The translations under genes were made by a program, and so were the position numbers. The notes under the pieces were generated by a model that was given only the letters and a program-made list of their open reading frames with translations, was not told the DNA's origin and ran no database searches. DNA of 37,918 nucleotides from a virus (Duplodnaviria > Caudoviricetes): the IMG/VR virus record IMGVR_UViG_3300049137_000066, positions 1 to 37,918 of that record; one strand, written 5' to 3'. This document shows positions 174 to 33,559 of the stretch, piece by piece. Every line of letters begins with the position of its first letter. Position 1 is the stretch's first letter.

Positions 174-208
174 GACCGGCCCAGAACCAGCGTCGCGGCA
201 CCACTTTA
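174..208 (-). promoter_or_regulatory. Leader motif copy (174-190) plus putative -10 TAAAGT (203-208)
   Basis: + strand gaccggcccagaaccag matches the invariant core CGGCCCANAACCAG. Confidence 0.7.
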
Positions 209-234
209 CGGCCGACCACAGTCAACGAGCAGGG

Positions 235-636
235 CTATTCACCCGCCAGGGGTGCGCCCCCCGGGCCTGGCCCGGGCCCCGTGTCGGGCCGCTCCAGGAG
301 TTGGGCCAGGCGCGCGTTCGCCTGGTCCACCGCGTCCCGCAGCGAACACCCGGAGTTGGGCAACAGCTCGTGCTCCATCCCCGTGATCCGCCCGTCCAGG
401 CTCGACAGGCTGTCCTCCAGGTTCCCCACCCGCTCCATGACGCCGGGCCGGGCCGGGACACCAGGCCGCGCCGGCTCGCCCGTCCAGTCGTCAATCACGG
501 TATTGACCCGCCGGCCGAACCGGACCAGGCTCCGCGTCCCCCGCCAGACCAGAGTCCCTACCCCGCCCACCACGGTCACGACGCTCGCCCACATGATGGC
601 CGTGTCCAACGCCGGGATGCCCGTTGCTTGCATCAT
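235..636 (-). CDS. Single-TM membrane protein of the lysis cassette (holin-associated)
   Basis: N-terminal TM (WASVVTVVGGVGTLVW), a coiled segment, and an ELLPNSGCSLRDAV motif of the kind seen in actinophage proteins next to endolysins. GAGGAGG RBS. Confidence 0.7.
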   Translation of the reverse strand: MMQATGIPALDTAIMWASVVTVVGGVGTLVWRGTRSLVRFGRRVNTVIDDWTGEPARPGVPARPGVMERVGNLEDSLSSLDGRITGMEHELLPNSGCSLRDAVDQANARLAQLLERPDTGPGPGPGGAPLAGE

Positions 637-646
637 CCCGCCCTCC

Positions 647-1603
647 TCAACTCGTGCCGGTGTGCAGGAGCCGCCAGGTGAGCGGTCCCGGGTACCCGTC
701 CGGGTCGCCCCGCAACTCCGCCCGGGAGCGCTGGAAGTCGGCCACGTTCCGCCGCGTCCACTCCGAGAACCGGGTGCCCGCCTGGTAGCCGTCTCCGTCG
801 TGGTGGTGCGTCCAGCCGCGGCGGATGAGGGCCCGGTCCAGAGTGAGGACCGCCGGGTGGGACACGCCGAGCACGAACGCCCCGGCGCCCGGGTACGTCG
901 GCACCGGGTCCGGCTGCTCCTCCTCCTGGCGCTCGGGGACGCGGAGGACCTGGCCGGGATAGACGGTGTACGGCTCCCGGAGGTCGTTGAGCTCCGCGAG
1001 GTCTCGCCAGTCCACGTCCAGGCGCCGGGCGATGACGGCCAGGTAGTCCCCCGGCCTCACCACGTACTCGCCCTCCGCCGGCTCCGCCTGGTGGCCGCCG
1101 GAGTCGGGGCGGGGAGCGCCGGCGCGTACCCACTCGTAGAGCGGCCCGCCGGGGCACTGCGTGGCGTAACCGTCCCGGTGGCCGCCGACCCACGTCCCGG
1201 CGTCCCCGTCCCGCCGCAACCAGTCGATGGCGTCGCGGAGGCCGTGGAGCATGGCCTCCGGCGGCCGGGTCAGGCCGGAGCTCCCCAGGAGCGCGCACAC
1301 CGCGTAGTCCTGGCCGTTGAGCGCCGCCGAGCCGTTGGCGCCCGGCCGCTTGTGGGTGCCTCGGCCCTCGAAGACGTGCCCGTGCTCGCACACCAGGGCG
1401 TTGTACGCGATGTCCGCGTAGTTCTCCACCGGGTCCGCCAGGTGATGGGAGCGGACGGTCCACACGTAGGAGCCGCACTGCGAGTGCGGGCGGGAGGCGT
1501 AGGCCGCCCCGAGATAGTGGATCTTCACGCCCCGGGCGGACCCCAGGTACGAGGCCGGGGAGGAGGCGGGAGCCCCCCAGTCCTCACGCTCTACGAACTG
1601 CAC
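647..1603 (-). CDS. Endolysin: PGRP/Amidase_2 N-acetylmuramoyl-L-alanine amidase + LysM + peptidoglycan-binding domain
   Basis: REDWGA, IHY, YADIAYNALV..GHVFEGRG and GHRD..ATQCPG amidase motifs; LysM YVVRPGDYLAVIARR..LAELNDL..VYPGQVLRVP; C-terminal DGYPGPLTW. Start revised to GTG 1603 after GGAGGTGG. Confidence 0.92.
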   Translation of the reverse strand: MQFVEREDWGAPASSPASYLGSARGVKIHYLGAAYASRPHSQCGSYVWTVRSHHLADPVENYADIAYNALVCEHGHVFEGRGTHKRPGANGSAALNGQDYAVCALLGSSGLTRPPEAMLHGLRDAIDWLRRDGDAGTWVGGHRDGYATQCPGGPLYEWVRAGAPRPDSGGHQAEPAEGEYVVRPGDYLAVIARRLDVDWRDLAELNDLREPYTVYPGQVLRVPERQEEEQPDPVPTYPGAGAFVLGVSHPAVLTLDRALIRRGWTHHHDGDGYQAGTRFSEWTRRNVADFQRSRAELRGDPDGYPGPLTWRLLHTGTS

Positions 1604-1643
1604 GTGACCACCTCCAGGGCAGGGGTGTGCGGACGGCCGGGCA

Positions 1644-2165
1644 TCAGTCGGCCGCCTCATGGATGACGAGCTTGAATTCCGCGAGGACCACGGCCCGCGC
1701 GGTGGTGGCGTTGTGCGAGACCCGCACCGCCAGGGGGACATCCGGGTGCACGAAGATGCCGTGACCGCCCTTGACCCAGCACTGCATACCGATGGACGGC
1801 GGCCGGTGCTCGGTGGCCGTGGTGTCCACCGGAGGCGGGGAGTTGAGCGAGAGCGGGTCACGGGCGTACTGGTCCCGCAACTCCGTGTAGTCCCCCGCCT
1901 CCCACTGGATCATGGCGTGGAGCTCGCCCCACCCGGAGACGGCCGGCCAGATGAGGCCGGACCGCTCGTCCGTGTCCCACGACGTGACTGTGTATCCGTC
2001 CGGCTGGAGCGTCTGGTGCATCCGCCACCGGTCGTAGGACTCCGCCGCGCCGAACGGGAAGCGCAGCGTCGTGTACCCGGCGCCCGCCGGGATGACCTGC
2101 GGCGTGTCCCGCTTGAGGGAACACACCAGGACGCCGCCGGGGCGGAGGAAGCTATCGGTCGCCAA
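1644..2165 (-). CDS. Putative tail receptor-binding beta-domain protein, paralog of 4299..4904
   Basis: Shares QPDGY, RSGLIWP, IQWE.G.YTELRDQ, DTTAT.HR and LAEFKL with the 4299 gene. Start revised to TTG 2165 after GGGAGA. Confidence 0.7.
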   Translation of the reverse strand: MATDSFLRPGGVLVCSLKRDTPQVIPAGAGYTTLRFPFGAAESYDRWRMHQTLQPDGYTVTSWDTDERSGLIWPAVSGWGELHAMIQWEAGDYTELRDQYARDPLSLNSPPPVDTTATEHRPPSIGMQCWVKGGHGIFVHPDVPLAVRVSHNATTARAVVLAEFKLVIHEAAD

Positions 2166-2193
2166 GAGGTCTCCCGAAGAGGGAAGTTCCTTG

Positions 2194-2228
2194 GCCCGGC
2201 CCACAACCAGCGGCGTCCAGGGAGTGTA
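2194..2228 (-). promoter_or_regulatory. Leader motif copy (2194-2210) plus putative -10 TACACT (2223-2228)
   Basis: Exact match to GCCCGGCCCANAACCAG. Confidence 0.75.
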
Positions 2229-2236
2229 TCCGCCGG

Positions 2237-2545
2237 CTACTCGGCCCCTGCGGGCTCGAGGTCCGGCCCCGTGTAGCCGGACATACGGCGCGCGGAGACC
2301 TCCGGCACGCCGAGCGCGCGCAACGACAGGTAGTCCTCCCGCTGCGCCGCCTCGGCCTCCGCGGCGAGCTGCGCGGCGTGGGCCTGGTTGGCGGCCTCCA
2401 CCTCGGCCAGGGAGACCGCGTACTCCTCCTCCGTCAGGACGGTCGCGCCCTCGGGGAGCTCGGGCGCCTCCGCCTGGTCCCCGGAGACGGTCCGGGAGAC
2501 CAGGGCGCCGTCTGCGGTCCGGTAGTACAGGGTGACGTCAGCCAT
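2237..2545 (-). CDS. Small acidic protein after the tail fibre (possible fibre chaperone)
   Basis: 102 aa with GAGAGG RBS and helical LTEEEYA...AEAEAAQREDY. Function inferred from position only. Confidence 0.6.
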   Translation of the reverse strand: MADVTLYYRTADGALVSRTVSGDQAEAPELPEGATVLTEEEYAVSLAEVEAANQAHAAQLAAEAEAAQREDYLSLRALGVPEVSARRMSGYTGPDLEPAGAE

Positions 2546-2558
2546 GGTTACGGCCTCT

Positions 2559-4184
2559 CTAGAGAATGATGAGGGTGGACCTGATGAAGCTCTGTACGCG
2601 GTTGTAGGTGGCTCCGCCCGACCCGCGTCCCATGCGGATGCTCACCGTGTAGTTGAGCGTCGCCCCCGGCGCGACCGTCCCCGGAGACAGGACCTTCGTG
2701 GCCTGCGCGTGGGTGTCCAGGGCCGCCGACGTCCCCGTGTTGCGGGAGTACCAAGTCTCGTCCGTGCTGATACCGAATCCCGCGCCCGCGCCGGCGGGCA
2801 GGTTGATATCGGCGTCCACCTCCGCCTCGATCTGGAGCCACGCCTCCCGGCACGGGTCCGGGTTGGTGATGGCCAGAGTGTGGGTGGCCACCTCCGTGTC
2901 CTGCGGCGCGGGGACCGCGAGGTCCGCGACGTTCAACACCTGCTGGTCCGACTGGTAGACGATGCGGCCCCGCGGCTCCGAGCGGAGCGCGCCCGTGCTG
3001 TCGCAGTACACCCGGCCCGCGTTGGCGTCCACGTCGCACGGGTACGCCCACGCCTGTACGGCGACCGCCAGGGGCGCGCCGGCGGTGCCGTCCCCGGTGA
3101 GGCCGCACGCCGTCTCCAGCGGCGCCGCAGCGGGGACCAGGAGCCCGCCGTCCGTGCCGAAGGTGAGCGTGTTCCCGGCGTCCGTGGACGGCCGGGCCTC
3201 CACCACGCCGGTGGCGGGGTCGTAGGCCGCGCCGTCCCCGGCGGAGATGCACGGCCGGACGTCGTCACAGGTGACCGGGTCGGCGGCCACCACGTACGGG
3301 TCCGCGAGCGTCCCGGCCCCGGTCACGGTGACGTTGGGCCCGGCGGTCACCACCGTGGAGACTCCGCCTCCGCCGGCCGAGCTCACGACGTACGGGCTCG
3401 CCGTGGTGCCCGCGCCGGTGACGGTGACGTTCGTCCCGGCCTGGACCACGGTGGGCGGTGAGCCGATCACGCCCGTGGCCGGGTCGTAGGTGACGCCGGG
3501 CCCGGCCGAGAGACACGGCCGCACGTCATCACAGGTGACCGGGTCGGCGGCCACCACGTACGGGTCCGCGCCGGTGCCGGTACCGGTGACGGTCACATTC
3601 GCCCCGGCCTCCACGACCGTGGCCGCGCTGCCGCCGGCCGAGCTCACCACGTAAGGGCTCGCGCTCGTACCGGCACCGGTGACGGTGACGTTCGTCCCGG
3701 CCTGGACCACGGTGGGCGGTGAGCCGATCACGCCCGTGGCCGGGTCGTAGGTGACGCCGGGCCCGGCCGAGAGGCAGGGGCGGACGTCGTCACAGGTGAC
3801 CGGGTCGGCGGCCACCACGTACGGGTCCGCGCTGGTGCCCGTGCCGGTCACGGTCACGTTGGGCCCGGCCTGGACCACGGTGGGGTCCGCGGCGTCGGCG
3901 GCCACCACGTACGGGTCCACCACCGTGCCGGTGCCGGTCACGGTCACATTGGGCCCGGCCTCCACCACCGTGGGGTCCGCGCCGATCACCCCCGTGGCGG
4001 GGTCGTAGGTGGCACCAGGCCCGGCCGAGAGGCAGGGCCGGACCTCATCGCAGCTGACCGGGGCGGCGGCCTCCGAGGAGACGACGTACGGCGCTCCCGA
4101 GCTGCCGTTCCCGGTGACGGTGACGCCGGGGCCGGCGGTCACCAGGCAGGTGCAGCGGGAACCGCCGCAGCCGAATTGAGCCAT
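2559..4184 (-). CDS. Repetitive tail fibre-like protein
   Basis: Start revised to ATG 4184 (AGGAG RBS; MAQFGCGGSRCTC). Repeats VVxAGxNVTVTGxGTxxxPYVV and V(T/S)CD(D/E)VRPC(L/I)SAG..YDPATGV, then a C-terminal beta domain. Confidence 0.75.
   Translation of the reverse strand: MAQFGCGGSRCTCLVTAGPGVTVTGNGSSGAPYVVSSEAAAPVSCDEVRPCLSAGPGATYDPATGVIGADPTVVEAGPNVTVTGTGTVVDPYVVAADAADPTVVQAGPNVTVTGTGTSADPYVVAADPVTCDDVRPCLSAGPGVTYDPATGVIGSPPTVVQAGTNVTVTGAGTSASPYVVSSAGGSAATVVEAGANVTVTGTGTGADPYVVAADPVTCDDVRPCLSAGPGVTYDPATGVIGSPPTVVQAGTNVTVTGAGTTASPYVVSSAGGGGVSTVVTAGPNVTVTGAGTLADPYVVAADPVTCDDVRPCISAGDGAAYDPATGVVEARPSTDAGNTLTFGTDGGLLVPAAAPLETACGLTGDGTAGAPLAVAVQAWAYPCDVDANAGRVYCDSTGALRSEPRGRIVYQSDQQVLNVADLAVPAPQDTEVATHTLAITNPDPCREAWLQIEAEVDADINLPAGAGAGFGISTDETWYSRNTGTSAALDTHAQATKVLSPGTVAPGATLNYTVSIRMGRGSGGATYNRVQSFIRSTLIIL
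3415..3773. repeat. Intragenic direct repeat: ~98 bp identical at 3415-3512 and 3676-3773 (261-bp period)
   Basis: ccggtgacggtgacgttcgtcccggcctggaccacggtgggcggtgagccgatc...cccggccgagag is present twice. Confidence 0.9.
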
Positions 4185-4211
4185 GGGACAACTCCTGTGT
4201 GGAGGAGGTGC

Positions 4212-4261
4212 GCCCGGCCCATAACCAGCGGGAGGAGGAGTGCGGCCCGGCCCAGAACCAG
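4212..4261 (-). promoter_or_regulatory. Tandem pair of leader motifs (4212-4228, 4245-4261); no -10 box seen
   Basis: gcccggcccataaccag and gcccggcccagaaccag. Confidence 0.75.
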
Positions 4262-4298
4262 ACGGCGGCACGGCGGCCAGGCGGAGCCCGGCCCGGTG

Positions 4299-4904
4299 TC
4301 AGGGGAGGATGGCGAGCTTGAATTCCGCCAGGGTCAGTTGGCGGGCGGTGGCGTCGTTGTGCGCCACCCGCAGCGCGATCGGCGTCGTGGGGTTCACGAA
4401 GATCTCGTGATGCTTCGTGAAGTAGTTCTCACCCGGGGACGGCGCGCGGTGATCCGTCGCCGTGGTGTCCGGCGTCGTGAACGGCGTACGGACGAACTGG
4501 TCCCGCAGCTCCGTGTACGCCCCGGACTCCCACTGGATGAGCGCGGTGAGGAGGCCCCAGCCGTTGAACTTCGGCCAGATGAGTCCGGACCGGTCGTCCG
4601 TCGCCCAGTCCACCACCTGGTACCCGTCCGGCTGGATCGGGTTGTGCATGTCGTACGCGTCGTAGGACTCGCCCGTGTACGGGAATCTGACGATGTGGTA
4701 CGCCCCGTCCGCCGGGATCGTCTGCGGCGAGTCCGTCTTGAGGCTGACCACCTTCGTGACGAACTCCGGCTCGGGCGGGTCCACCAGGTCCTCGCGGCTG
4801 ACGATGTAGGGGTTGGACGCCGTGCCGCTCCCGTCCACCAGCATCCCCGGACCGGCGACGACCAGGCAGGAGCACCGGTCCCCGCCGCACCCTGTGCGCG
4901 CCAT
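4299..4904 (-). CDS. Minor tail/receptor-binding protein with Cys-rich N-terminus
   Basis: Start ATG 4904 (GGAGGTGG RBS). MARTGCGGDRCSCLVVAGPG..GSGTASNPY matches the N-terminus of the 2559 gene; the C-domain is paralogous to the 1644 gene. Confidence 0.75.
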   Translation of the reverse strand: MARTGCGGDRCSCLVVAGPGMLVDGSGTASNPYIVSREDLVDPPEPEFVTKVVSLKTDSPQTIPADGAYHIVRFPYTGESYDAYDMHNPIQPDGYQVVDWATDDRSGLIWPKFNGWGLLTALIQWESGAYTELRDQFVRTPFTTPDTTATDHRAPSPGENYFTKHHEIFVNPTTPIALRVAHNDATARQLTLAEFKLAILP

Positions 4905-4932
4905 GAGCCACCTCCGCGTTGTTCGCGTTTCG

Positions 4933-4966
4933 GCCCGGCCCACAACCAGTCAGCACGCCCAGTCTA
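4933..4966 (-). promoter_or_regulatory. Leader motif copy (4933-4949) plus putative -10 TAGACT (4961-4966)
   Basis: Exact motif match. Confidence 0.75.
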
Positions 4967-4970
4967 GGGC

Positions 4971-5007
4971 CGGGCCTGGCGGCCCCCGGGAGGCCGCCTG
5001 ACGCCCG
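4971..5007 (-). terminator. GC-rich hairpin just downstream of the 5014 gene
   Basis: ggcggcc...ggccgcc stem with outer cgggc/gcccg arms; no U-tract. Confidence 0.45.
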
Positions 5008-5013
5008 ACACGG

Positions 5014-5751
5014 TCAGCCGTGGAGCTCCACGATCACGATGCCGTTCCCGCCCGTCTGGCCGGTCTCCGCGCTGCCCGTGGAGAGCGCCCCGCCCGCGCC
5101 GCCGCCGTAGCCGCGGGGAGCGGTCCCCGGCCCGCTGTTGTTGCGGGGGAACCCGCCGTGGCCCAGGTGCGCCTCCCCGCCCGCACCCGAGAGGCCCCAG
5201 GTGCCGTTGAGGCGGATCGCGCCGCCGCCGGCACCGCCGCCGGACGCCCAGTCACCGGAGCCGGCCGTGGGGCCCGGGATGCCGTTGGACGTCACGGGCA
5301 CCGTGCCGGAGTCCATGGCCGCGGTGCCGCCGTCCCCGCCCGGCGCGATGACGAACCCGCCGAAGGAGGAGGAGCCGCCGACGCCGCCCGGCGCGGACGC
5401 CGTCCCCGCCGCGCCACCGGTGCCCACCACGATGGACTCCACGGCGGCTAGGTCGGCCGCGTCGATGAGGCGTTCACCGTACCCGCCGCCCGCGCCACCA
5501 GGACGCGCGATCAGTTCGTTGGTGTTGGCGTCCGCGCCGGCCGAGCCACCGCCCGCCCCCTGCACGCGGACCTTGACCCGGGCGAGCCACGGGTAATCCG
5601 TCTTCTTGAACTGGAAGACGCCGGGGTTTTTGAACTCCAGGACCTCGCGGAGTCCCTGCTGACCGGGGACCAGGCAGAGCTCCCCGGCGGTGTTGACAGT
5701 GAAGTACTCGCCACAGGCGCACACGGACGCGATCGGACTCACCTCATGCAT
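5014..5751 (-). CDS. Glycine-rich-domain minor tail protein (start uncertain; possibly ATC at 5733)
   Basis: VRVQGAGGGSAG..GGAGGGY..IVVGTGG..GGSSSFG..APGG..GYGGGAGG..GGNGIVIVE is the typical phage-tail Gly-rich domain pattern. Confidence 0.8.
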   Translation of the reverse strand: MHEVSPIASVCACGEYFTVNTAGELCLVPGQQGLREVLEFKNPGVFQFKKTDYPWLARVKVRVQGAGGGSAGADANTNELIARPGGAGGGYGERLIDAADLAAVESIVVGTGGAAGTASAPGGVGGSSSFGGFVIAPGGDGGTAAMDSGTVPVTSNGIPGPTAGSGDWASGGGAGGGAIRLNGTWGLSGAGGEAHLGHGGFPRNNSGPGTAPRGYGGGAGGALSTGSAETGQTGGNGIVIVELHG

Positions 5752-5763
5752 GACGAAGGATGA

Positions 5764-5796
5764 GCCCGGCCCACAACCAGCGGCGCGTCCAGGTTA
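5764..5796 (-). promoter_or_regulatory. Leader motif copy (5764-5780) plus putative -10 TAACCT (5791-5796)
   Basis: Exact motif match; the -10 overlaps the stop codon of the 5794 gene. Confidence 0.75.
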
Positions 5797-6264
5797 GACC
5801 TCGGCGGCCGGCTCCTGGTCCGGCGTCGAGCCGGTGACGTGGACGGCCGTCCCCTCCGGCGCCTCCACCCACCTCATGCCGCGCCCGTGCGGCACCAGGG
5901 CCCACAGCTGGACCACGACGCGGCCGGGCTCGGCCTCCTCCACCGCCACGGTGTACGGGCCGCCCTGGCCGGCGGGGACGGCGGTCACCACCAGGCGGCC
6001 GTGGCCGGGATCCGGGGACCAGACGGCGCTCCCGTCCGGCCCGGCCTGGAGGACGGCGGCCGCGACCGTCCGCCCGGGCGCACCAGGAGGACCCGGCGGG
6101 CCGGGACGACCTCGAGGTCCCTCCGGTCCAGGCTCCGCCGCGGCCCCGGCCTCGGCGGGGCGGCGGCGGTTCTCCATGCGCCGCGCCCGTTGGTCCAGGT
6201 CCCGTAGCACTCCGGGGAGGTTCCCCTCCGGGGACCTCCGGAACGACGATCCTCGTAGCCCCAT
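5794..6264 (-). CDS. Minor tail protein with a short collagen-like (GXY)6 stretch
   Basis: N-terminal helix LRDLDQRARRMENRR, then GPEGPRGRPGPPGPPGAPG. Directly follows the hub gene. Confidence 0.7.
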   Translation of the reverse strand: MGLRGSSFRRSPEGNLPGVLRDLDQRARRMENRRRPAEAGAAAEPGPEGPRGRPGPPGPPGAPGRTVAAAVLQAGPDGSAVWSPDPGHGRLVVTAVPAGQGGPYTVAVEEAEPGRVVVQLWALVPHGRGMRWVEAPEGTAVHVTGSTPDQEPAAEV

Positions 6265-6268
6265 GACC

Positions 6269-7282
6269 TCACACCCCCGAGGGGACTAGCTGCACGCGCA
6301 CGCTCTCCCCGCGATCGTTCTCCGTGACCTTGACCCCGTGAATCTTGAGGCTCTGGGAGATCGTCCGACAGGTGCTCGTCGTGGTGACGTCCACGCAGTA
6401 CCCGGGCACCAGGGAGGCGACGTCCACGGACGCGTCCGGGGCGAGGGTCGTTTCGTTGCTGGTGTCCAGGAACGTCGGCGCCGGGTAGGAGCCGCGCAGC
6501 CGGGAGCGCGCCGCCGCAGCGGCGGAGTTGTTGTCCAGGATGCTCGTCTCCTCGGCCACCCGCTCCAGGAGCCCGTAATACGAGTCGATGCCGCCGGCCT
6601 CCCCCTTGATGTCGCCCTCCTCGGCCCCGTGGACCACCCACCGGGTGGCCAGGGAGGAGCCGTCCTCCGCGATCTCCAGCCCGGACGGAAAGTCCTCGTC
6701 CGTGAGCCGGCCGACGCGGGCGCAGTGGTCCTCACCCATGAGGAGAATCCGCCGGCCTACCGCCGTGTAGTCCAGACCGTTCTCCGCCAGGGCGCGGAGG
6801 TGGTCGCCGGTCTGGCCCACGTCCTTCTCGTAGCGGCGCGTCCCCGTGATCCGGGACTCCGAGAGGATCTGTACCTGATGGCCGGGGTCGTCGGGGGCGA
6901 AGCCGTCCCGGATGAGGGCATGGGCGACCTGCACCAGGTCCGTGTCCGGGAAGAACAGGTCATCGTGCGGGACGCGCCGGTCCAGCCACCCGAGGACGTC
7001 CACCGCGGCGATCTCCACGCCGTCCGCCCGCCACACCGGGGTCACCACGGGGCCCTCCCAGACGCCCACGCCGTCACGGAAGATCTGGAGGTTGTGGCGC
7101 CAGGACCGCACCCGAGCCAGGCCCTCGCAGCAATCCCCCTCCGGCTGCACGAGGACCCTCGCCGTGGACGCGTCGTCCAGCACGCGGGACCACTCCACTT
7201 GAAGGAGGACGTCCGCCTCCGCGACGAGGGCCCCACTCCTGTCCACCACACGCGCCTGGTGCGTTCCACATCCCACGGGCAT
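6269..7282 (-). CDS. Tail tip/hub (Tal-like) minor tail protein
   Basis: Second gene after TMP; WSRVLDDASTA..HNLQIFRDGVGVWEGPV..DVLGWLDRR..YYGLLERV pattern. Start revised to ATG 7282 (GGGAGG RBS). Confidence 0.75.
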   Translation of the reverse strand: MPVGCGTHQARVVDRSGALVAEADVLLQVEWSRVLDDASTARVLVQPEGDCCEGLARVRSWRHNLQIFRDGVGVWEGPVVTPVWRADGVEIAAVDVLGWLDRRVPHDDLFFPDTDLVQVAHALIRDGFAPDDPGHQVQILSESRITGTRRYEKDVGQTGDHLRALAENGLDYTAVGRRILLMGEDHCARVGRLTDEDFPSGLEIAEDGSSLATRWVVHGAEEGDIKGEAGGIDSYYGLLERVAEETSILDNNSAAAAARSRLRGSYPAPTFLDTSNETTLAPDASVDVASLVPGYCVDVTTTSTCRTISQSLKIHGVKVTENDRGESVRVQLVPSGV

Positions 7283-7311
7283 GGCCGTCTGCCTCCCTAC
7301 AACGGAGCTCG

Positions 7312-7344
7312 GCCCGGCCCACAACCAGCAGCCCGGCCAGGGTA
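7312..7344 (-). promoter_or_regulatory. Leader motif copy (7312-7328) plus putative -10 TACCCT (7339-7344)
   Basis: Exact motif match. Confidence 0.75.
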
Positions 7345-7353
7345 GCCGCGGGG

Positions 7354-12410: not shown

Positions 12411-12439
12411 CGGGCAACCTCACGAAGTGCGTGATGGTC

Positions 12440-12521
12440 GCCCGGCCCATAACCAGACGGCGTGTGTGCCCGGCCCAGAACCAGACGGCGGCGGCCCACC
12501 TGGTGGGCCGCCTCCAGACTA
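12440..12521 (-). promoter_or_regulatory. Tandem leader motifs (12440-12456, 12468-12484), hairpin (12490-12512) and putative -10 TAGTCT (12516-12521)
   Basis: Two motif matches; perfect inverted repeat ggcggcccacc-t-ggtgggccgcc. Confidence 0.75.
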
Positions 12522-12525
12522 GCCG

Positions 12526-13364: not shown

Positions 13365-13392
13365 TGTGTGTCCTTCGGTCCGCCGCGCTGCA

Positions 13393-13436
13393 GCCCGGCC
13401 CACAACCAGCGGCGCACGCGTCTGGGGGGAAGGGTA
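13393..13436 (-). promoter_or_regulatory. Leader motif copy (13393-13409) plus putative -10 TACCCT (13431-13436)
   Basis: Exact motif match. Confidence 0.75.
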
Positions 13437-13465
13437 GCGGGGCGAGCTGGGGACGGCAGACGGCA

Positions 13466-13538: not shown

Positions 13539-13592
13539 CCGCTGCACTGATCAGCTCACACCAGGCTCGCAGACCCGGCGCGTGAGGGTCAA

Positions 13593-14563: not shown

Positions 14564-14576
14564 GAGCGCGGCCTCC

Positions 14577-16837: not shown

Positions 16838-16911
16838 GCTCGGCCCACAACCAGCAGCGAGAGACGGTGCGTCTCGTGCCCGGCCCAGAACCAGCAGCTA
16901 CCAGGAGTCTA
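16838..16911 (-). promoter_or_regulatory. Tandem leader motifs (16838-16854 variant, 16878-16894) plus putative -10 TAGACT (16906-16911)
   Basis: gctcggcccacaaccag and gcccggcccagaaccag, separated by the small hairpin gagacg-gtg-cgtctc. Confidence 0.75.
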
Positions 16912-18977: not shown

Positions 18978-18997
18978 GAGGGCCTTCCGAGGGTGGG

Positions 18998-26800: not shown

Positions 26801-26811
26801 CATCCACTCAT
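20839..26811 (-). CDS. Giant (1990 aa) Cys-module protein with six inserted passenger domains; putative head fibre/decoration
   Basis: Intact ORF with high GC3; recurring LCD...FLR...DxxLDG..Y...G.V..C modules; Thr/Gly/Pro-rich; no signal peptide; lies between capsid and tail genes. Confidence 0.8.
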   Translation of the reverse strand: MSGCCGQGPVITSALAVPRVDVEPVLLCDVLPDGTVAATVLVEPVYDATTSERVGTRVVDPVTGVDYTPAGELQPCPTPESCSCEAVLLCDTVPVTTSAVTLTGTGYQVRNDQVISGAPRRGTDADATAIWSGQTVSVPGAAPDGSAAGAHTHYGVILGVGDVQCGDLDPAGTLDVTATVTYRNDGPGGAWDYYGRLSLWDGSTMVTADPFGAGSGVFFPAGDTRTATITGPVPVASLLAGDVTVEFNLETGADPLNGTPAGDQPKTWTVSGGTLTAGPAPVTGCASAATPFLRHLCRSCTGGATVTDTTLDGTTTYAVQGEVGVCGPSGEETAAPLVLGQVCYDDGTGTVRAAAVVRCAGCEDQAVQYVDVETGEEVTAPTLVDCPPAAGCDQFTGTLCYQEPATQDPSFTLHKFNNADPNHPGCLVGLDAMDGDFPFIQYNDPITAWEGTYSSNTGTASNVEISAPELGGFIDWSTFSPPIPSVPNAGIPAPYTGTAVFNGVTVTLEVFTEQALTTGTQYLRMGGTLHFRLSFSSPVTMLFGTQGFADPAPDNGERFCNVTATGVVTGAGEIRTAYGLRDCETGETTWRDQVSGQDVDLTQAVVVPCPQAQRDCASPTEPTATVGLCLADGTPIAVTVVRDCAGIVTSEGWLNLTTGAYSAGAPPAGTVACGDSRSVQVSGTFCDVLADGTVAGLVLVEYSYDDTGAISSVRLVDAVTGTTYTPQGTVTTCPAGVEQPQQDAVILCHTAADGTVTEFLRDYRRDELGAVVGHSDYLLDGTAYTPDLAGTVGVCPPQGCQNCETLVLCADDSATITGQGVSSGTLSNGVTWQVKGNASATPSNLSNADGAWWGNTAIFPNANIPAYTFTFTRPAVVEFSVYMGYFSPTPEPDDNCMQLPAGLEVVSLPAGFVYNPVTGLVCVNVTQAADPTGANMANPTRAVSARFRTPGPVSTLTTRFLGPRRAISGAFRTAWVGALQVTASVQFLRRICRDCEGLVTGITDTLLDGTTAYVPPAVVGVCEPSQEQPQGADAEPLLLCHTATADGTVTPFLRHLVYNASTGVMTARTDTLLDGTTLFAPGAGTVGICTEPQPCDVSPVCFQPNGRVEFISNQGTPGTPGSTANTVDADWKWQTDPNAPAASWWDMYRIAKNGAWTNDPSSAATGYEGTAHWVGAHCNGFVQTRCNPVGANEGPGFLTVQPGLSAANPFNWYASATFDLPADADPASIQIEVPALAADQLLVAWRLNTGPWQPVGTDYQTLYTLPASTVPGAQAGTNRITLHIQETSPSDSSEGLLAHVVATYAVESLVQWTRILCPDGTTTYLDEFGDEQTAVPAGWVQVPCPSGEAAGVDVETWPLCVLDNTTGNVLQAVRAEQVYDATGAATGAPRIVDAVTGGPVAIPGGAHLGVCPDGDAPADVELVVLCDVTEVTTPEETPERITNGHFATDASGWALTGGARYVPSSSPDGSVGFLDLSADNGAAGTAEQTTTVTPGLTYNLSARIGIWSTGGNTPQQVRVDVLDGSGAVLHTETVTPAAVSGGPLWPADGVVGPVPIVATDTTMTVRFTDLVGGDFIDALLDDVSLLGPGVPAVTTEEVVPFLRRYTFDADGTATHTDTTLDGDTYLPSGEVTACTGNSTGGGDGTGEDVETVLLCDVTEGEAQSYTPTSTAVLPPVASTEPAISSTTAGYMVDPTPAFSSGGSVMVPTWGTDPGGSRINAISGRVTSSGPTPCGTPGDVRVTVSLRATNTGAATDVGSPEAGLTIRNGTTVLDTANVANTNTGAAQTFEVEAVVPWADLIAGNITWYWWARVYQGPNIHKTFTVDQYAVTVEDAEPIAGCGEGAVTSFLRHFTPDPAAGTAPYFDTTVDGAAYEPTGTVTSCAAAAASTPAPPDPADQPVQTGIRRVTGTVVQALVTEFPGLQSVSLAVLADTVHVTMGNGAAQPVPAGATLTWSTNDTDDSSLSVATFAGATAAASYLLNWTWKATVAG

Positions 26812-26814: not shown

Positions 26815-29800
26815 TCAACTCCCAGTCGTAAAGGCGACGGTGACGATCCCGTCCACCGCCGTGACGGATAGCGGGCCGACCAGGGCCGCGTCTTGTTCCT
26901 TGTCGGTGGACCAGGTCACGGACTCACCCCGGAAGAGCGTGGAGGCGCCCTCCACGGTGGTGATCTGGCCCGTGCCGGTGTGGGCGGTGAACGTGGCGGA
27001 GCGCAGCGCCACGACCGTGGAGGCGTCCCACGTCCCGCCCACGGGGAGCTGGACGCGGTGCGCCTGGACCGTGACGGGGAGCGGCGCCCCCGCCTCGACG
27101 GTGGCGCAGTCCACGGGCGATACCGGCGCGTAGGGCTGCGTCAGGTCCTCGGTGTAGGTGCCCACGCTGGTGAGGACTCCGGCGCAGTCCACGGCCAGGA
27201 GCTCGACGTACTCCACGTCCGCGATGCCGTCGCCGTCCGTGTCGTCGCACCGGCAGGCGGAGAGGACGGTGTGGGCCGGGCACGGCTCCTCCGCCGGCGC
27301 GCACTGGCCCACCTCGCCGGTGACGTCGTACGGGTCGCCGTCCAGGGTGGTGTCCGCCGTGGTGAGGACGTCCCCGGTCTCCGCGTCCACGGTGAGGGTG
27401 CGGAGGAACTGGACCGGGCCCGTGGCGGTGGTGTCGCAGAGCAGGAGCGTGCTGGTGCCCGGAGACGGCGGGGCAACCGTCGAGCCGCCGCCGTCGCCGG
27501 ACGTGCACTGGCCCACCTCGCCCTCCACGACGTACGGCGTGGAGCCGTCCAGGGCGAAGTCCTCGGCGGAGGTGAGGCCGCCGTCGCAGTCGAAGACCAT
27601 GCGCCGCAGGAACGGGCTCGCCGTGACGGTGAGGACGGAGGTCCGCAGCTCAATCGGCATCACGAACAGATCGCGATCATTGATCGCGCCGCCGGTGGTC
27701 AGGTCGGTCCAGCGGATCGTCACCGTGCCGGTGGCCGGCGCGATGAACGAGAGCGGAGGCTCCTCGGCGAGGACGCCGCCGGGGAACACGCTGGAGCCGT
27801 TGGAGGTGTTCTGGGTCCTGGTGGCGAGCACGGTGGTGCCGTCCAGGATCTCCAGCAGATAAACGGCGTCGTTGGCGGCCGGGTTGGAGCCTCCCGCGCC
27901 GATCCACGCCGTGGCGAACCGGTAGTCGTAGAGGACCGTCGCCAGGAGCCCGCCCACGGTGAGCTCGGCCACGCCGGTGGCGGGCTGGTTGGCCTGCGCA
28001 AACCAGAGCGTGGTGCCCTGGTTCCCGGTCACGACGTTCCCGGTGAGGGTGAAGTCCCGCGCCGGGGTGGGGATGGGGGCCTGCGGGTCGTACGTGAGGT
28101 CACAGAGCTGGACGAGCTCGGTGTCTCCGCACGGCGGGACGGTCGTCCCGCTGCTCGCCGGGGCGCACTGGCCGATGGCGCCGGTCGGGGCGTACGCGGT
28201 GCCGTCCGGGAGGGTGTAGGTGACCGACTCCACCGCGCCGGTCTCGCAGTCGGTGACCACGTTCGCGAAGACCTGCGCCGCACACCCGGCCTGGTCGTAG
28301 GCCACGGTCGTGGTGAACGCGGAGAGCTCCCACCCGGTCCGCCTCGGGGGCGGGCAAGTGGCGCCGCTGTCGTCGTAGGCGTCGAACGCGGCCAGGACGG
28401 CGATGTTCCCGGCGGCCAGGTCGGCGGCCGGCACATCGGCCTCGGCGGTCAGGGTTCCTGACCAGCCGGCAGGAGTGTCGAGCGGGGCCAGGGCCAGGGC
28501 CACCCGGTTGGCCTCGCCGCTGCCGTTGTAGATCCCGATGAACCCGGTGTTGCGGCAGCCGTTGTCCGGGCCGAGCTGGGTCACGTTGACCTGGACCGTC
28601 ACGTGGGCGGTGCCGGTGTCGCAGGCCGGCCGCGGGGCCTGGATGGTGGCGGCTGCGGTGCGGACGGTGCCGCCCGTGCCTGGCTGCGGGCCGGTAGCGT
28701 CCGGGAGGGTGAGCGTGCCGCCGTCCCAGAGCGCCTGTGCTCCGGGCGTGGGCACGCCCGTGGTGTACGGGTAGTACGGCGCTCCGCTGGTGTCCGTGAG
28801 GGTGGCGGCCGGGGTGCCGTCCTGGGGGAGGTCGCACACAAGGAGCGTGGAGGTGTTGCGGCACGGTGGGGCCGGGCAGACGCCGAGGTGCGCCCCGCCG
28901 GGGACCGCGACGGGCGCGCCGGTGACGGCGTCCACGAACCGGTTCCCCACCGCCAGGCCGGCGGCGTCGTAGACGACCTCCCGGCGGATCTCCTGGAGGA
29001 CGTCGCCGGTGGCGTTGTCGATGACGCACAGGCCGTAGGACTCCACGTCCACGGGCGGGGGCGTCGGGGCCGGCTGCTCCGGCTGGCAGACGCCCACCGT
29101 GCCGGTGACCGCGTAGGTGCCGCCGTCCAGGGTGTAGTCCGTGTGCCCGGTGATGAGGCCGGCCGCGTCGCGCCGGTAGTCCCGCACGAACGCCGTGGTG
29201 GTGCCGTCCGCCTGGACGTCGCACAGGACCACGGAGTCCTGTTCCGGGAGCTGGTCCCCGCCGCCGGGGCACTGCCGGAGGACGCCCTGGAGGGTGTACG
29301 GGTCGCCGGTGGCCGGGTTGAGGAGCTGGACGCTCGCCAGGGAGCCGTCCGGGGCGTAGGCGTACTCGACGAGGACCAGGCCGAGGACGTCCCCGGTGGC
29401 CGGGTCGGTGTCGCAGAGGATGCCGGTGAGCTCGAACGCGGAGGCGTCCCCGCACGGCCGGGCCCCGGCCGGGGGCGCGCCCTCGCTGTAGGTGCCGGTA
29501 AGGAGCTGGACCCACCCCTGGCGGGTCACCGCGCCGTCACAGTCCCGGGTGAGGAGGACGGCGATCGGTGTCCCGTCCGCGAGGCAGAGGCCCACGGTGG
29601 CCACGGGTGCGGCGTCACAGCCCGTGGAGCACGTACGGACCGGGCCGGTGACGATGTGCGGCGTCGCGCCGTCCAGGGCGTAGTCCAGGAACGTGGCCAC
29701 GCCCTGGAGCCACGTGTACCGGCGCAGGAACGGGCCGGAGTCGTCGCAGAGCTGGAGGGTTTCCGTCTCCTGGCTCCCCCACTCGCACTCCACCGGGGAG

Positions 29801-30216
29801 ACGGGTACGTAGGGGGTGGAGGGGTCGCCCTGGTAGGTGAGGACCAGGGAGGTGGTGCCGTCCGCGCGGACGCACCAGAGCTCGGAGTACGTGGCGTCCG
29901 CCGCGCCGTCCCCGTCCGTGTCGTCACAGAGGGTCCGGCAGACGGTCTCCACACAGCCGGGGGTCTCGCACGGGCCGGCGTCGGCCGGCGCGGCGCCGGG
30001 GGTGAAGACGCCGGTTGCGGGGTCAATCCAGCCGGTGACCTCCGGCGGGGCGGCATCGTCGCCGCAGTCGGCGGCCGGGGAGCTCACCACCAGGAGGATG
30101 GTGGTCCCGTCCTCCCGACAGAGGGGCGTGGTGGTGATGGCCGGGGAGTAACAGGCGGCGGGGTCGCCCGGCGTGCCGCCGCCGTCCGGGCCGCACGGGA
30201 TTGGCTGTACAGGCAA
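26815..30216 (-). CDS. Large (1133 aa) Cys-module protein with two inserted passenger domains; paralog of the 1990-aa protein
   Basis: Shares ATVGLCLADGTPIAV..RDC, LVLVEY.Y, RDYRRD and VDAVTG.PVA.PGGAHLGVCP modules and the C-terminal domain. Confidence 0.8.
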   Translation of the reverse strand: MPVQPIPCGPDGGGTPGDPAACYSPAITTTPLCREDGTTILLVVSSPAADCGDDAAPPEVTGWIDPATGVFTPGAAPADAGPCETPGCVETVCRTLCDDTDGDGAADATYSELWCVRADGTTSLVLTYQGDPSTPYVPVSPVECEWGSQETETLQLCDDSGPFLRRYTWLQGVATFLDYALDGATPHIVTGPVRTCSTGCDAAPVATVGLCLADGTPIAVLLTRDCDGAVTRQGWVQLLTGTYSEGAPPAGARPCGDASAFELTGILCDTDPATGDVLGLVLVEYAYAPDGSLASVQLLNPATGDPYTLQGVLRQCPGGGDQLPEQDSVVLCDVQADGTTTAFVRDYRRDAAGLITGHTDYTLDGGTYAVTGTVGVCQPEQPAPTPPPVDVESYGLCVIDNATGDVLQEIRREVVYDAAGLAVGNRFVDAVTGAPVAVPGGAHLGVCPAPPCRNTSTLLVCDLPQDGTPAATLTDTSGAPYYPYTTGVPTPGAQALWDGGTLTLPDATGPQPGTGGTVRTAAATIQAPRPACDTGTAHVTVQVNVTQLGPDNGCRNTGFIGIYNGSGEANRVALALAPLDTPAGWSGTLTAEADVPAADLAAGNIAVLAAFDAYDDSGATCPPPRRTGWELSAFTTTVAYDQAGCAAQVFANVVTDCETGAVESVTYTLPDGTAYAPTGAIGQCAPASSGTTVPPCGDTELVQLCDLTYDPQAPIPTPARDFTLTGNVVTGNQGTTLWFAQANQPATGVAELTVGGLLATVLYDYRFATAWIGAGGSNPAANDAVYLLEILDGTTVLATRTQNTSNGSSVFPGGVLAEEPPLSFIAPATGTVTIRWTDLTTGGAINDRDLFVMPIELRTSVLTVTASPFLRRMVFDCDGGLTSAEDFALDGSTPYVVEGEVGQCTSGDGGGSTVAPPSPGTSTLLLCDTTATGPVQFLRTLTVDAETGDVLTTADTTLDGDPYDVTGEVGQCAPAEEPCPAHTVLSACRCDDTDGDGIADVEYVELLAVDCAGVLTSVGTYTEDLTQPYAPVSPVDCATVEAGAPLPVTVQAHRVQLPVGGTWDASTVVALRSATFTAHTGTGQITTVEGASTLFRGESVTWSTDKEQDAALVGPLSVTAVDGIVTVAFTTGS

Positions 30217-31687: not shown

Positions 31688-31716
31688 GGCTCCACCTCCG
31701 TGGACGGGTCAGGCCG

Positions 31717-31748
31717 TGGCGGGCCCGCGGCGCTGCGCGGGCCCGCCA
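31717..31748 (-). terminator. 13-bp hairpin between the two capsid genes
   Basis: tggcgggcccgcg / cgcgggcccgcca, 6-nt loop. Confidence 0.65.
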
Positions 31749-31767
31749 GAGGGCCGAGGGTGGAGGG

Positions 31768-33465
31768 TCAGGAGGTGGTGCCGGCGGCGCACAGCATCTC
31801 GAGCTGCGCACCGGTCGCGCCGTCCGGGCAGACCGGGACGGTGACCAGGCGGGTGTCCACGCTGCGGTCCACGAGCGCGCTGCATTCCTCGGCGAAGATT
31901 GCAGTGAAATCGTTAAATCGGAACTTCGTACTGTCGTGGATCACGCCCAGGTTGACCTCCTCGCCGCGCCCGATGACCAGCGAACCGGCCGGGTACATGA
32001 GGAATTTGATCGTGCTGGGGAACGCCTGCGCCGGAGTGGCGCCGCCGATCTCGTCCGGCACCGCCGGGTTGAGGCCGCGCGCGAACTGGACGCGGACGCC
32101 CAGCTTCGTGAACGTGTCCTGGATGCAGTTGGGGTCCAGGTCGCAGATGTTGACGCCGTTCTGGCGGGCCAGGTCCGCGAGGAAGAGCTGACGGGACCAG
32201 TACGGGAACACGACCTCCAGGGCCGTGGACTCGCACAGGCTGTGCCGCTCGATGACGTCGGCGCTCTGGAGGGCGACCGCCGCGAACACGGCGGAGAGCG
32301 CGCCGAAGGACGGGTCCATGACCACGGGCGTGGCCGTGTTGAGTGCCTGCTGGAACAGCTGCTGCTTCACGCGGATCTCGTGCGCCACCATGGCGTTGCG
32401 CAGGTACCAGCTCACGAGCTCCGGGAAGTGGCGCTGCGTGAGGATGCCGGCCTCCAGGCAGACGCCGATGGCGTCACACCGGACCTCGACCGGGTCGGGG
32501 CACGGGATGCGGAAGCAGGGCTTTTCCGCGCCGGAGATGTCGTCCGCCTCGGTGTGGACCCACGTCATGGCGGAGACGTCCAGGGACAGAGGCTTGTAGT
32601 AGCGCAGGCCGCCGCGGGCGAGCTGGATCTCCGGGGCGTCCCACAGGAGGTCCGGGCACGCCGTGTCCGTGAGCTCGTAGACGGTCTCCGAGGGCGCGCA
32701 CCAGCCGCCGGACGCCACCAGGTCCCCGCCCTCCAGACGCCGCTGGTTGGAGGCGTGGAGGGAGACCGTGGTGCCCTCCGGCGCGGAGCTGGAGTCCGTG
32801 ACGATGAGGTCCTGCGAGTACGGGTGCCGGTAGCTGATGACCTGTCCGACGCCGCCGCCGGCCGTTTTGAGGGCGTTGGCGCGGCTGATGATGCCGGCGG
32901 TGATGTCTCCGAAGTCCAGGGGCGCGCCCGGGGTGTAGCCGGGGACGTCCACCGCTGCGGTGATGCTGGTCGTCGGTGCCGGGGCCTCGGGCAGGACGCG
33001 CGGCTGGACGCGGCGCACGGCGGAGAGGTTGAGCGCGGGACGGGCGATCGCGGATGCGGTCGCCGCGGGGGCGGCCGGGGTCTCCGGAGCGGCCGGAGCA
33101 GCCGGAGCGGCGGGGGCTGGCTCGGCGGAGGCGGCGGCCTCCTCACCGCCCTCCGGGGCCGGGTCGGCGGCCGGGGCGGCCTCGTCGCCGCGCACCCGGG
33201 CGGCCATGGCCTCGATCTCGGCGGCGGCGGCCTCGGCGGCCTCACGGCGGGAGCGCTGCTCCGACCGGATCGCCTCGGAGCCGGCGGCCAGGGCGCGCAT
33301 CTGCGCCAGGGACTCGTCCGTGATCGCGTCCTGTGCGGACAGGCCCGCGAAGGCGACGGAAGAGACTTGGAGGGCTTCCGCCAGGTCCTCGTCCGGGAGG
33401 GACGCGAGGTACGCGGAGTCAGAGAGCTGGTTGAGGTCCTGCGGGAGCTCGTACGAGTCGGCCAT
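31768..33465 (-). CDS. Major capsid protein (hexamer-type) with N-terminal scaffold-like region
   Basis: Coiled-coil and Ala/Pro N-terminus, then LVASGGWCAPSETVYEL..PEIQLARGGL..KPCFRIPCP..GIL.QRHFPEL. Start revised to ATG 33465. Confidence 0.88.
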   Translation of the reverse strand: MADSYELPQDLNQLSDSAYLASLPDEDLAEALQVSSVAFAGLSAQDAITDESLAQMRALAAGSEAIRSEQRSRREAAEAAAAEIEAMAARVRGDEAAPAADPAPEGGEEAAASAEPAPAAPAAPAAPETPAAPAATASAIARPALNLSAVRRVQPRVLPEAPAPTTSITAAVDVPGYTPGAPLDFGDITAGIISRANALKTAGGGVGQVISYRHPYSQDLIVTDSSSAPEGTTVSLHASNQRRLEGGDLVASGGWCAPSETVYELTDTACPDLLWDAPEIQLARGGLRYYKPLSLDVSAMTWVHTEADDISGAEKPCFRIPCPDPVEVRCDAIGVCLEAGILTQRHFPELVSWYLRNAMVAHEIRVKQQLFQQALNTATPVVMDPSFGALSAVFAAVALQSADVIERHSLCESTALEVVFPYWSRQLFLADLARQNGVNICDLDPNCIQDTFTKLGVRVQFARGLNPAVPDEIGGATPAQAFPSTIKFLMYPAGSLVIGRGEEVNLGVIHDSTKFRFNDFTAIFAEECSALVDRSVDTRLVTVPVCPDGATGAQLEMLCAAGTTS

Positions 33466-33496
33466 GAGGGCGGGTCTCCAGGGTGTGAATCTGGTG

Positions 33497-33559
33497 ACCC
33501 GGCCCAAAACCAGCGGTACAGGGGAACAGCATAGCCACTCGCCGGTTCTGTCAACCGGC
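33497..33559 (-). promoter_or_regulatory. Leader motif copy (33497-33513), putative -10 TATGCT (33528-33533), and inverted repeat gccggtt-N5-aaccggc (33541-33559) containing TTGACA
   Basis: acccggcccaaaaccag. TTGACA is only 15 nt from the -10, so it is a doubtful -35. Confidence 0.7.

Follow-up and report, generated by a model that had tools for sequence, protein, structure and literature searches.

We find that the late genes of a TurkishDelight-like Streptomyces phage are preceded by a short, oriented element that we propose, with a probability of roughly 55%, to be a two-state RNA switch of translation for virion genes that is opened by a ligand. The window (the whole 37,918-nucleotide stretch of DNA analyzed here, which is from soil) carries 13 same-strand copies ahead of 10 late genes, namely those for capsid, tail and their neighbors (Table 1). 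In our model, short late transcripts would carry the element at their predicted 5' end, and by default its 3' strand would pair over the ribosome-binding site (RBS) and start codon (OFF). A putative ligand, for which a late-made phage protein is the likeliest candidate, would capture the element as a bulged hairpin and free the RBS (ON). Such activation would let the many simple internal promoters fire without harm ahead of assembly.

The repeat and its position, as read from the sequence, are confirmed. Scanning for the motif at up to three mismatches returned 15 matches, all on one strand, against a mean of 1.54 and a maximum of 7 in shuffles; 13 of them have at most one mismatch and fall exactly where the initial annotation had placed its same-orientation copies, and the remaining two (3761 and 4019), with three mismatches, lie within a coding repeat. 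That annotation had described a 17-nt motif: the repeat stands and the length does not, as on the coding strand GCYG and an optional further base belong to its 5' side, 4-5 nt in all, which brings the element to 21-22 nt. It had also reported a near-fixed distance to start codons, which we recover with each figure lowered by one (24, 28, 27, 28, 30, 29, 29, 28, 31 and 31 nt in ascending coordinate order, the 30-nt gap being counted to an ATC start). Among the virion and lysis genes it named as targets, the capsid, tail and tape-measure genes are correctly assigned, whereas no copy stands directly ahead of the endolysin gene in the window. For the target genes starting at 2165, 4184 and 4904, PHROG returned nothing and Pfam nothing convincing, in a scan from which the target starting at 149, truncated by the window edge, was left out; no tRNA or tmRNA was found in the window.

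Table 1. Element copies and associated features in the window.
Feature	Position	Strand	Details
Hairpin element, after holin-like gene	174..194	-	A-U change at pair -3:15; -10 TAAAGT 203-208; ATG 149
Hairpin element, gene ahead of endolysin	2194..2214	-	-10 TACACT 2223-2228; TTG 2165
Hairpin element, gene-proximal copy, internal tandem	4212..4232	-	closing pair broken; ATG 4184
Hairpin element (22 nt), upstream copy, internal tandem	4245..4266	-	no -10 box
Hairpin element (22 nt), unannotated tail-region gene	4933..4954	-	-10 TAGACT 4961-4966; ATG 4904
Hairpin element, tail fibre-type gene (PHROG 863)	5764..5784	-	-10 TAACCT 5791-5796; likely AUC start 5733
Hairpin element, minor tail (PHROG 837) leader	7312..7332	-	-10 TACCCT 7339-7344; ATG 7282
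Hairpin element (22 nt), gene-proximal copy, tape measure leader	12440..12461	-	GTG 12410
Hairpin element (22 nt, two-base bulge), upstream copy, tape-measure tandem	12468..12489	-	-10 TAGTCT 12516-12521
Hairpin element, weakly occluded leader of the tail assembly chaperone gene	13393..13413	-	-10 TACCCT 13431-13436; GTG 13364
Hairpin element, gene-proximal copy, major tail leader	16838..16858	-	pair -2:14 = U-A variant; GTG 16806
Hairpin element, upstream copy, major-tail tandem	16878..16898	-	-10 TAGACT 16906-16911
Competing (OFF) helix example, capsid leader	33460..33504	-	motif 3' strand + anti-SD over SD and spacer before start
Hairpin element, major capsid (hexamer) leader	33497..33517	-	closing pair A-U variant; -10 TATGCT 33528-33533; ATG 33465
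Small CxC protein directly before capsid gene, DUF7196-like	33618..33848	-	candidate ligand, unproven

Transcription would probably start from TANNNT -10 boxes, which lie upstream of 11 of the 13 copies and never closer than 6 nt: the distance is 6-17 nt for the seven single copies, and in two tandems it is 7 and 26 nt, counted from the first copy. The one locus previously said to have no -10 is the 4212/4245 tandem, the only one without a TANNNT box within 66 nt, and this tandem, which lacks its own promoter, is internal to a transcript. A similar layout recurs in the wider collection, with the box 6-14 nt upstream in 192 of the 232 copies that have one and never at less than 6 nt, and with the start codon 27 ± 3 nt from the element in leader copies, within a range of 18-45 nt imposed by our filter.

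Comparison of these copies indicates that the element behaves as an RNA hairpin, with compensatory changes, tolerated G-U pairs and two nearly invariant bulges. Taking the C of CUGG as position 0, its outer part comprises pairs -4:16, -3:15 and -2:14, followed by a bulged G(-1) with or without one extra base, and its inner part pair 0:13, a bulged U1, pairs G2:C12, G3:C11 and 4:10, and a 5-nt loop. The three outer pairs are kept in 245, 245 and 241 of 245 leader copies, and only the three matching column pairs beat all 1,000 shuffles of this set; the copies share descent, so these counts are not independent, and L001-L193 were retrieved by a pattern with positions 13-15 fixed. In a second set of 166 copies, chosen by their genes and not by pairing, the five variable pairs are likewise kept in 165, 160, 164, 159 and 163, and RNAalifold predicted the same fold unprompted from 29 capsid leaders, with four of the eight pairs changed on both sides.

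These features bear on whether the element acts instead as duplex DNA, in the form of a stoperator, an operator or an activator site located downstream of the promoter. The stoperators found in L5 and further phages of cluster A are 13-bp DNA sites spread through the genome, at which binding of the immunity repressor blocks elongation, and the element resembles them in being multi-copy, asymmetric, intergenic and oriented with transcription, as well as phage-specific. However, compensatory pairs and frequent G-U (U-G occurs at pair -2:14 in 47 of 245 copies) are meaningless in duplex DNA, loops differ freely in sequence from one phage group to another, and the element is limited to late genes: all nine TurkishDelight copies lie in the virion region, with none beside early genes or the repressor/Cro genes 54-55. 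We therefore regard a DNA site as very improbable. The element is also present in TP1604, and no repressor is annotated in the part of that genome examined. Nor is the motif equally frequent in host genomes, since a strict copy is missing from 379 of 401 Streptomyces genomes and the other 22 carry the motif nearly always at phage genes; use of the motif by the host was rejected, the inspected solitary copies lying at intact or broken phage genes or being chance-like. The earlier suggestion of an mRNA-leader element thus draws support from the compensatory changes, the G-U pairs, the gap of at least 6 nt to the -10 and the near-absence from host chromosomes.

Without help the hairpin is not expected to fold: its predicted probability in the full leader is close to 0, and forcing it costs a median of 11.6 kcal/mol; in isolation it folds no better than shuffles in five of six tests. 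Its 3' strand is also predicted to be able to pair across the Shine-Dalgarno sequence and start codon, and this competing OFF helix is predicted for every gene-proximal copy in the window except the one at 13393. Both the hairpin and the helix that buries the RBS had been missed in the first reading. The computed cost of opening the RBS has a median of 15.5 kcal/mol (n = 245) as compared with 8.6 kcal/mol for 76 motif-less TurkishDelight genes (p = 1.6e-19), and with the hairpin forced it is 9.2 kcal/mol (p = 0.08 versus ordinary genes), which gives the modeled energy gap between the ON and OFF folds. Grafting the motif onto ordinary leaders gave an opening energy of 8.7 kcal/mol, and shuffling the spacers gave 10.6 kcal/mol.

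The competing helix also appears to covary at tape-measure genes, where in 47 leaders it is 88% paired and holds 21 both-side changes against 8.8 when shuffled, although only 4 of its 13 pairs are changed on both sides, a count matched by 257 of 500 shuffles. Exchanging strands among variant leaders had a modest effect, with the native 3' strand fitting its own leader better in 26 of 49 cases, equally in 11 and worse in 12. In 10 capsid leaders from Mycobacterium, Gordonia and Microbacterium phages, RBS opening costs 6.7-11.6 kcal/mol, near the ordinary value. The placement of the start region in a helix incompatible with the upstream element is thus a computed and partly covarying property of the Streptomyces temperate group that is weak in distant groups. 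Of the three roles first put forward, translational switch, antitermination or processing, the RBS energies and OFF-helix covariation favor the first over the other two.

The 48 leaders of chaperone genes keep the motif yet are barely occluded (a drop of 1.2 kcal/mol), and the element may therefore do more than open the RBS. One such role would be that of a protein-bound shield at the 5' end that protects late mRNAs from 5' decay, with RBS opening a side effect or second function. We think this unlikely, though it would account for the position of the element at the predicted 5' end of most transcripts, for its retention in chaperone leaders with an already open RBS and an often extended stem, and for the lower stem predicted to be pre-formed in the Audrey and Apex leaders; the internal 4212/4245 tandem has no promoter to give it such an end, and a stabilizer would not need strong, covarying helices that bury the RBS.

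Slightly less likely still, in our estimation, is a signal in nascent RNA that acts on RNA polymerase through antitermination or pause escape. Lambda nut/boxB with N and HK022 put, which act on transcription elongation from one or two sites per genome, are likewise small, promoter-proximal RNA hairpins in phage transcripts, and the orientation of the element is as expected of such a signal. The window, by contrast, has 13 sites, each tied to a start codon and overlapped by a helix that buries the RBS, in which we recognized no boxA, and the copies precede single genes less than 1 kb apart at the short, regular distance given above. No coding-strand terminator with a U tail was found in positions 1-19000, the five matches there all lying on the other strand against 2.8 expected by chance, in a scan that misses tail-less terminators; actinobacterial terminators may be without U tails, and so this test is weak. 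As for an N-like partner, we found no non-virion protein common to the carriers, in a search that short arginine-rich proteins would escape.

The ligand that would open the switch was sought by tblastn of all 125 TurkishDelight proteins against 18 records, by all-against-all clustering of open reading frames from 19 and then 35 records, and with 258 profiles. These searches found no non-virion protein common to all 35 carrier records: only virion genes are universal, WhiB being present in 13 of 18 records, a winged helix-turn-helix inside a protease fusion in 23 of 35 (not found in Gordonia-type ones), and a DUF6292 gene with a hairpin leader in 3 of 35. With virion genes alone common to the carriers, candidates for the ligand include a host molecule and a head-assembly protein with a second function, for instance a DUF7196-like one. 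The small protein encoded directly before the capsid gene matched DUF7196 in an atlas with a score of 0.81, which we take as a lead only; two AlphaFold models of it (pLDDT 74 and 77) gave no clear fold match, and relatives occur in Squash and Kelcole, with no hairpin seen in either. The sharing of virion genes alone would also suit a feedback operator, at which an unassembled, accumulating virion protein binds the hairpin and represses or balances virion protein synthesis, but we give this little credence, as folding of the hairpin is predicted to free the RBS and not to block it, and about 27 nt separate the end of the hairpin from the start codon. An antisense (toehold-type) switch would need a complementary trigger RNA from the phage; 7 of 18 Streptomyces-type records have no opposite-strand copy of the relaxed core, in a search that partial or host triggers would escape. 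Pairing with tRNA 3' ends was dropped as an idea because the element pairs with itself. The relative G018 carries locked hairpin copies within a non-coding stretch, possibly as a decoy, which suggests a ligand that can be titrated.

Several known systems offer parallels to a ligand-opened translational switch. In the Com/mom system of phage Mu, the start of a late gene is buried in a stem-loop that a small phage protein opens by binding immediately upstream, and the element would share with it a buried late-gene start region beside an upstream element, gating by a protein being supposed here by analogy. Com acts on one gene, whereas the element, a conserved bulged hairpin, occurs in 2-13 copies per phage and would govern the greater part of the virion genes; a Com-like counterpart was not found, and the proposed resemblance to Com is one of mechanism. 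Translational riboswitches that sequester the Shine-Dalgarno sequence, such as guanidine-II, have a short leader in which the ON fold and the OFF fold rule each other out, and resemble the element in this and in their tandem copies at some loci; the element, however, has no Rfam match, would be an aptamer of only 21 nt and is confined to phages. Doubly bulged hairpins of the BIV TAR type are bound by arginine-rich peptides and are alike in shape only, with two single-base bulges one pair apart beside invariant G-C pairs, and differ in host domain and function.

Start-associated sequences (SAS) of cluster K mycobacteriophages, as described in PMC3203893, are 13 bp long, contain the Shine-Dalgarno sequence, lie 3-7 bp from the start codon and mark non-structural genes; a role for SAS and ESAS in translation initiation was proposed there, with little support for RNA hairpins in ESAS. 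Like them, the element is oriented, repeated and asymmetric and keeps a fixed position near start codons; unlike them, it ends 24-31 nt before the start, is separate from the Shine-Dalgarno sequence, is found at genes for capsid, tail and tape measure, and shows the covariation of a hairpin. Rfam 15 gave no match across the whole window, and only sub-threshold, non-overlapping matches in 12350-13500 and in six related loci. Full-text searching, with supplements and subscription journals outside its scope, found no description of the element; it is absent from the available portions of PMC7150772 and PMC10986025, and a letter match in the available portion of PMC3878487 was a primer coincidence.

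The hairpin recurs in phages of Streptomyces, Gordonia, Mycobacterium and Microbacterium. We tentatively extend our model to suggest that a large group of actinophages of these hosts, with hexamer/pentamer capsids, may time virion synthesis mainly at translation: many simple promoters would fire, each message would stay locked pending the capture of a 21-nt doubly bulged hairpin by one ligand, and decoy RNAs of locked hairpins made by some phages would soak up that ligand; if so, the hairpin would be among the smallest natural RNA switches. The isolated phages TurkishDelight, TP1604, Togo, Godines and Audrey make the model directly testable in laboratory hosts, and a compact, inducible 50-nt leader, its predicted gap being 6-12 kcal/mol, would find use as an expression part in Streptomyces. 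Little is known of how actinophages turn on late gene expression, and if the model holds, a multi-gene late program would be run at translation by one small RNA element in phages of four host genera.

The element that precedes the late genes of this virus is a real and apparently undescribed phage RNA element, and we put the probability that it acts as a ligand-gated translational ON switch at slightly better than even (about 0.55). Its 13 copies in the window lie at the coordinates given in the initial annotation, all in one orientation and in far greater number than chance would give, and the distances from motif to start codon agreed on re-measurement. The 17-nt length proposed there proved too short: the flanks of at least 193 loci found by scanning viral contigs, from which the extent was defined, add GCYG before the core and a pyrimidine after it. 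In the 93.6 kb of Streptomyces phage TurkishDelight there are 9 copies, which all fall between 12,938 and 30,551 on the strand that encodes the virion genes. Host DNA did not show the motif as both equally frequent and randomly oriented; across five host chromosomes copies mostly clustered in prophages, with the remainder near a reversed-pattern control, and a strict copy occurred in 22 of 401 Streptomyces genomes (control, 0). Most of the solitary host copies inspected stood at intact or broken phage genes, and one (L505) seems fortuitous. In one host chromosome a second cluster of tail genes (G067:C1:7622842-7629755, L528) has decayed; its genes are broken, yet four hairpins remain intact.

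Numbered from the C of CUGG as 0, the hairpin pairs -4:16, -3:15, -2:14, 0:13, 2:12, 3:11 and 4:10, leaving a bulged G(-1), sometimes with one further base, a bulged U1 and a loop of 5 nt. Of the 288 distinct copies, 250 lie ahead of a Shine-Dalgarno (SD) sequence and start codon, and 245 of the 250 have the bulged G. In those 245 the three outer pairs are kept 245, 245 and 241 times, and the only column pairs to beat all 1000 shuffles were the three matching outer ones. Because part of this set had been retrieved by a pattern fixing positions 13-15, the pairing test was repeated on a gene-anchored set, in which the core lay upstream of 64/71 major tail, 39/47 capsid, 60/69 tape measure and 48/58 chaperone genes, counts that are lower bounds since some misses (records G016 and G028, for example) carry copies by another scan. 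With 166 of its 167 distinct copies used (one without the bulged G was left out), the five variable pairs were kept 165, 160, 164, 159 and 163 times, and A-U replaces C-G at 0:13 in 8 copies. RNAalifold, unprompted, recovered the fold from 29 capsid leaders, and in 74 copies chosen by descriptor, a selection that favours pairing, 99.2% of cells were paired and 42 changes were both-sided; shared descent inflates every one of these pairing and covariation counts. By sequence comparison the element behaves as an RNA hairpin, and its common G-U pairs, which favour RNA over duplex DNA, argue against a DNA site, a reading we consider very improbable.

Of the 245 copies, 232 have a TANNNT box upstream; the gap is 6-14 nt in 192 and in no case below 6 nt, as sigma-70 geometry would lead one to expect if the hairpin starts at or just after +1. 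An evident -35 box in the window is confined to the capsid promoter, and the start codon follows the element by 27.2+/-2.9 nt (the filter allowed 18-45 nt). The initial annotation had one locus without a -10; one tandem in the window has no -10 box within 66 nt and must be read from an upstream promoter. An element so placed might instead stabilise the 5' end of the message, which we think unlikely, or serve as a signal to RNA polymerase, to which we give slightly less credence.

Support for the translational switch comes from the competing fold. In the minimum-energy fold of whole leaders, the 3' strand of the motif pairs with bases around the start codon, and an anti-SD directly 3' of the motif pairs with the SD. 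Opening the ribosome-binding site (RBS) costs a median of 15.5 kcal/mol in motif leaders (n=245), 8.6 kcal/mol in 76 TurkishDelight genes that have an SD and no motif, 8.7 kcal/mol when the motif is grafted onto motif-less TurkishDelight leaders and 10.6 kcal/mol with shuffled spacers. Forcing the hairpin brings it to 9.2 kcal/mol, a value indistinguishable from that of ordinary genes (p 0.08). Broken down by gene class within the Streptomyces temperate group, this lowers the cost by 12.0 at tape measure (n=50), 11.2 at capsid (n=30), 6.6 at major tail (n=51) and 6-9 at other tail genes, and by merely 1.2 at chaperone leaders (n=48). Across 47 tape-measure leaders the OFF helix covaries, with 21 both-side changes versus 8.8 in shuffled data, although the number of covarying pairs (4/13) is not above chance. 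Counting against the model, the native strand came out ahead in just 26 of 49 variant leaders when strands were swapped as a control, and the unaided hairpin has a probability near zero and costs 11.6 kcal/mol to force, so that strong or co-transcriptional capture would be needed.

As to what might capture it, the genes common to all 35 records compared are virion genes only, and the absence of an opposite-strand copy from 7 of 18 Streptomyces-type records speaks against an antisense trigger with full complementarity. The candidates left are a small CxC protein whose gene immediately precedes that of the capsid, the winged HTH of the protease fusion, a short protein that has diverged beyond detection and a host molecule. 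Relatives of the CxC protein in Mycobacterium phages and in AnarQue fall under DUF7196; the protein also occurs in two phages where the hairpin was not seen, and fold searches with it gave no clear match. A feedback operator is a further reading, which we rate below the polymerase signal. In record G018, a stretch upstream of the portal gene (Table; near-identical contig, L548) has no convincing ORF and carries a TANNNT box ahead of each hairpin unit; its exact copies, with hairpin probabilities of 0.61 and 0.94, have extended, locked stems, and a strong stem-loop follows. This one example hints at a titratable ligand, for which the non-coding stretch is possibly a decoy RNA.

In other phages the same fold occurs with different loops. 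In TP1604 it stands ahead of the genes for capsid and major tail, in Gordonia phage Togo ahead of those for capsid, major tail, tape measure and lysin A, and in Microbacterium phage Margaery ahead of those for capsid and tape measure; 12 further whole viral records carry it too, where new closing stems appear (AUC/GAU, for example). Of 11 more isolates, a scan located the hairpin before the capsid gene in Godines, Audrey, AnarQue, Paschalis and Leonard; extra-bulge variants were recognised by eye in Squid, Apex and Argie, and no hairpin was seen in Squash, Kelcole or Dulem virus 38. For 10 distant capsid leaders RBS opening costs just 6.7-11.6 kcal/mol, so that support for the switch is good in the window's group and uncertain beyond it. 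The capsid leaders of Mycobacterium phages and AnarQue (L535-L539, L283) hold the hairpin within a longer conserved stem with GAGA/GAUC flanks; its lower stem has a 5' strand complementary to the SD, and here the switch geometry is possibly reversed; their major tail leaders share another motif, starting CCUCGGA. Hairpin leaders also precede DUF6292 genes outside virion operons (G014:49756, G019:81930, G028:57374, L532:482, L532:1233), often with an additional conserved stretch upstream, and in some phages a portal, ParB-like or unrelated large gene (L549, L550; G012:33622; L534:4462). Matching 21-mers at L305 and L352 are embedded in longer conserved sequence that looks structured, is followed by neither an SD nor a start and has no Rfam match; they may be unrelated.

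The window (37.9 kb, ~73% GC) comprises a siphophage virion and lysis module with every gene on the minus strand, and has PHROG matches for major head, major tail, tape measure, minor tail, tail fibre, endolysin, holin and protease/MuF fusion. Its capsid protein shares 89% identity with the TurkishDelight one and 53-58% with those of Woodruffvirus-type phages; minor tail homologues with named sources are mostly from Streptomyces, with some from Nonomuraea, Micromonospora, Microbispora and Planotetraspora. The 2H domain of the protease fusion, found in 29 of the 35 records (the winged HTH in 23), could be a packaged anti-defence nuclease by analogy with Acb1. Homologues of the tail-fibre-type gene carry AUG, GUG or UUG at the equivalent site, and record G005 likewise has AUC. 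The Cys-rich pair forms an insert absent from TurkishDelight, with the pentamer region on one side and the glycosyltransferase on the other, and the two proteins flanking the major tail gene possibly serve virion glycosylation.

Table. Locations of features in the window and of the opposite-strand stretch in record G018
Feature	Location	Strand	Remarks
Protease/MuF fusion	window 33881-37237	-	2H phosphoesterase-like domain aa ~291-475 (PHROG 2659 'RNA ligase'); embedded winged HTH aa ~745-810
Tail-fibre-type gene	window 5014-5733	-	AUC start likely
Very large Cys-rich repeat protein, 1990 aa	window 20839-26811	-	PHROG 18824 (unknown function)
Very large Cys-rich repeat protein, 1133 aa	window 26815-30216	-	PHROG 18824 (unknown function)
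Double GT4 glycosyltransferase	window 16941-18977	-	flanks major tail gene
Protein weakly similar to Stealth CR2	window 15392-16102	-	flanks major tail gene
G018 opposite-strand stretch (L251, L547)	G018:C1:85790-85990	opposite virion genes	two exact hairpin copies and one variant

The motif had not been recognised as a stoperator or a start-associated sequence, and membership of both is rejected; it is not one of the cluster K SAS/ESAS as described in PMC3203893. Rfam holds it in no family, and a search of the main text of open-access papers found no description of it. Phage Mu Com/mom and the SD-sequestering riboswitches are systems to which it may be likened; the switch would be of a known kind, and the element itself is apparently new. 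We propose that simple promoters would produce short late messages with a buried RBS, that a ligand present late would bind the bulged hairpin as it emerges, and that this capture would strip the OFF helix of its outer half, letting ribosomes load. As the chaperone gene is weakly occluded, we speculate that the chaperone could precede the tape measure protein.
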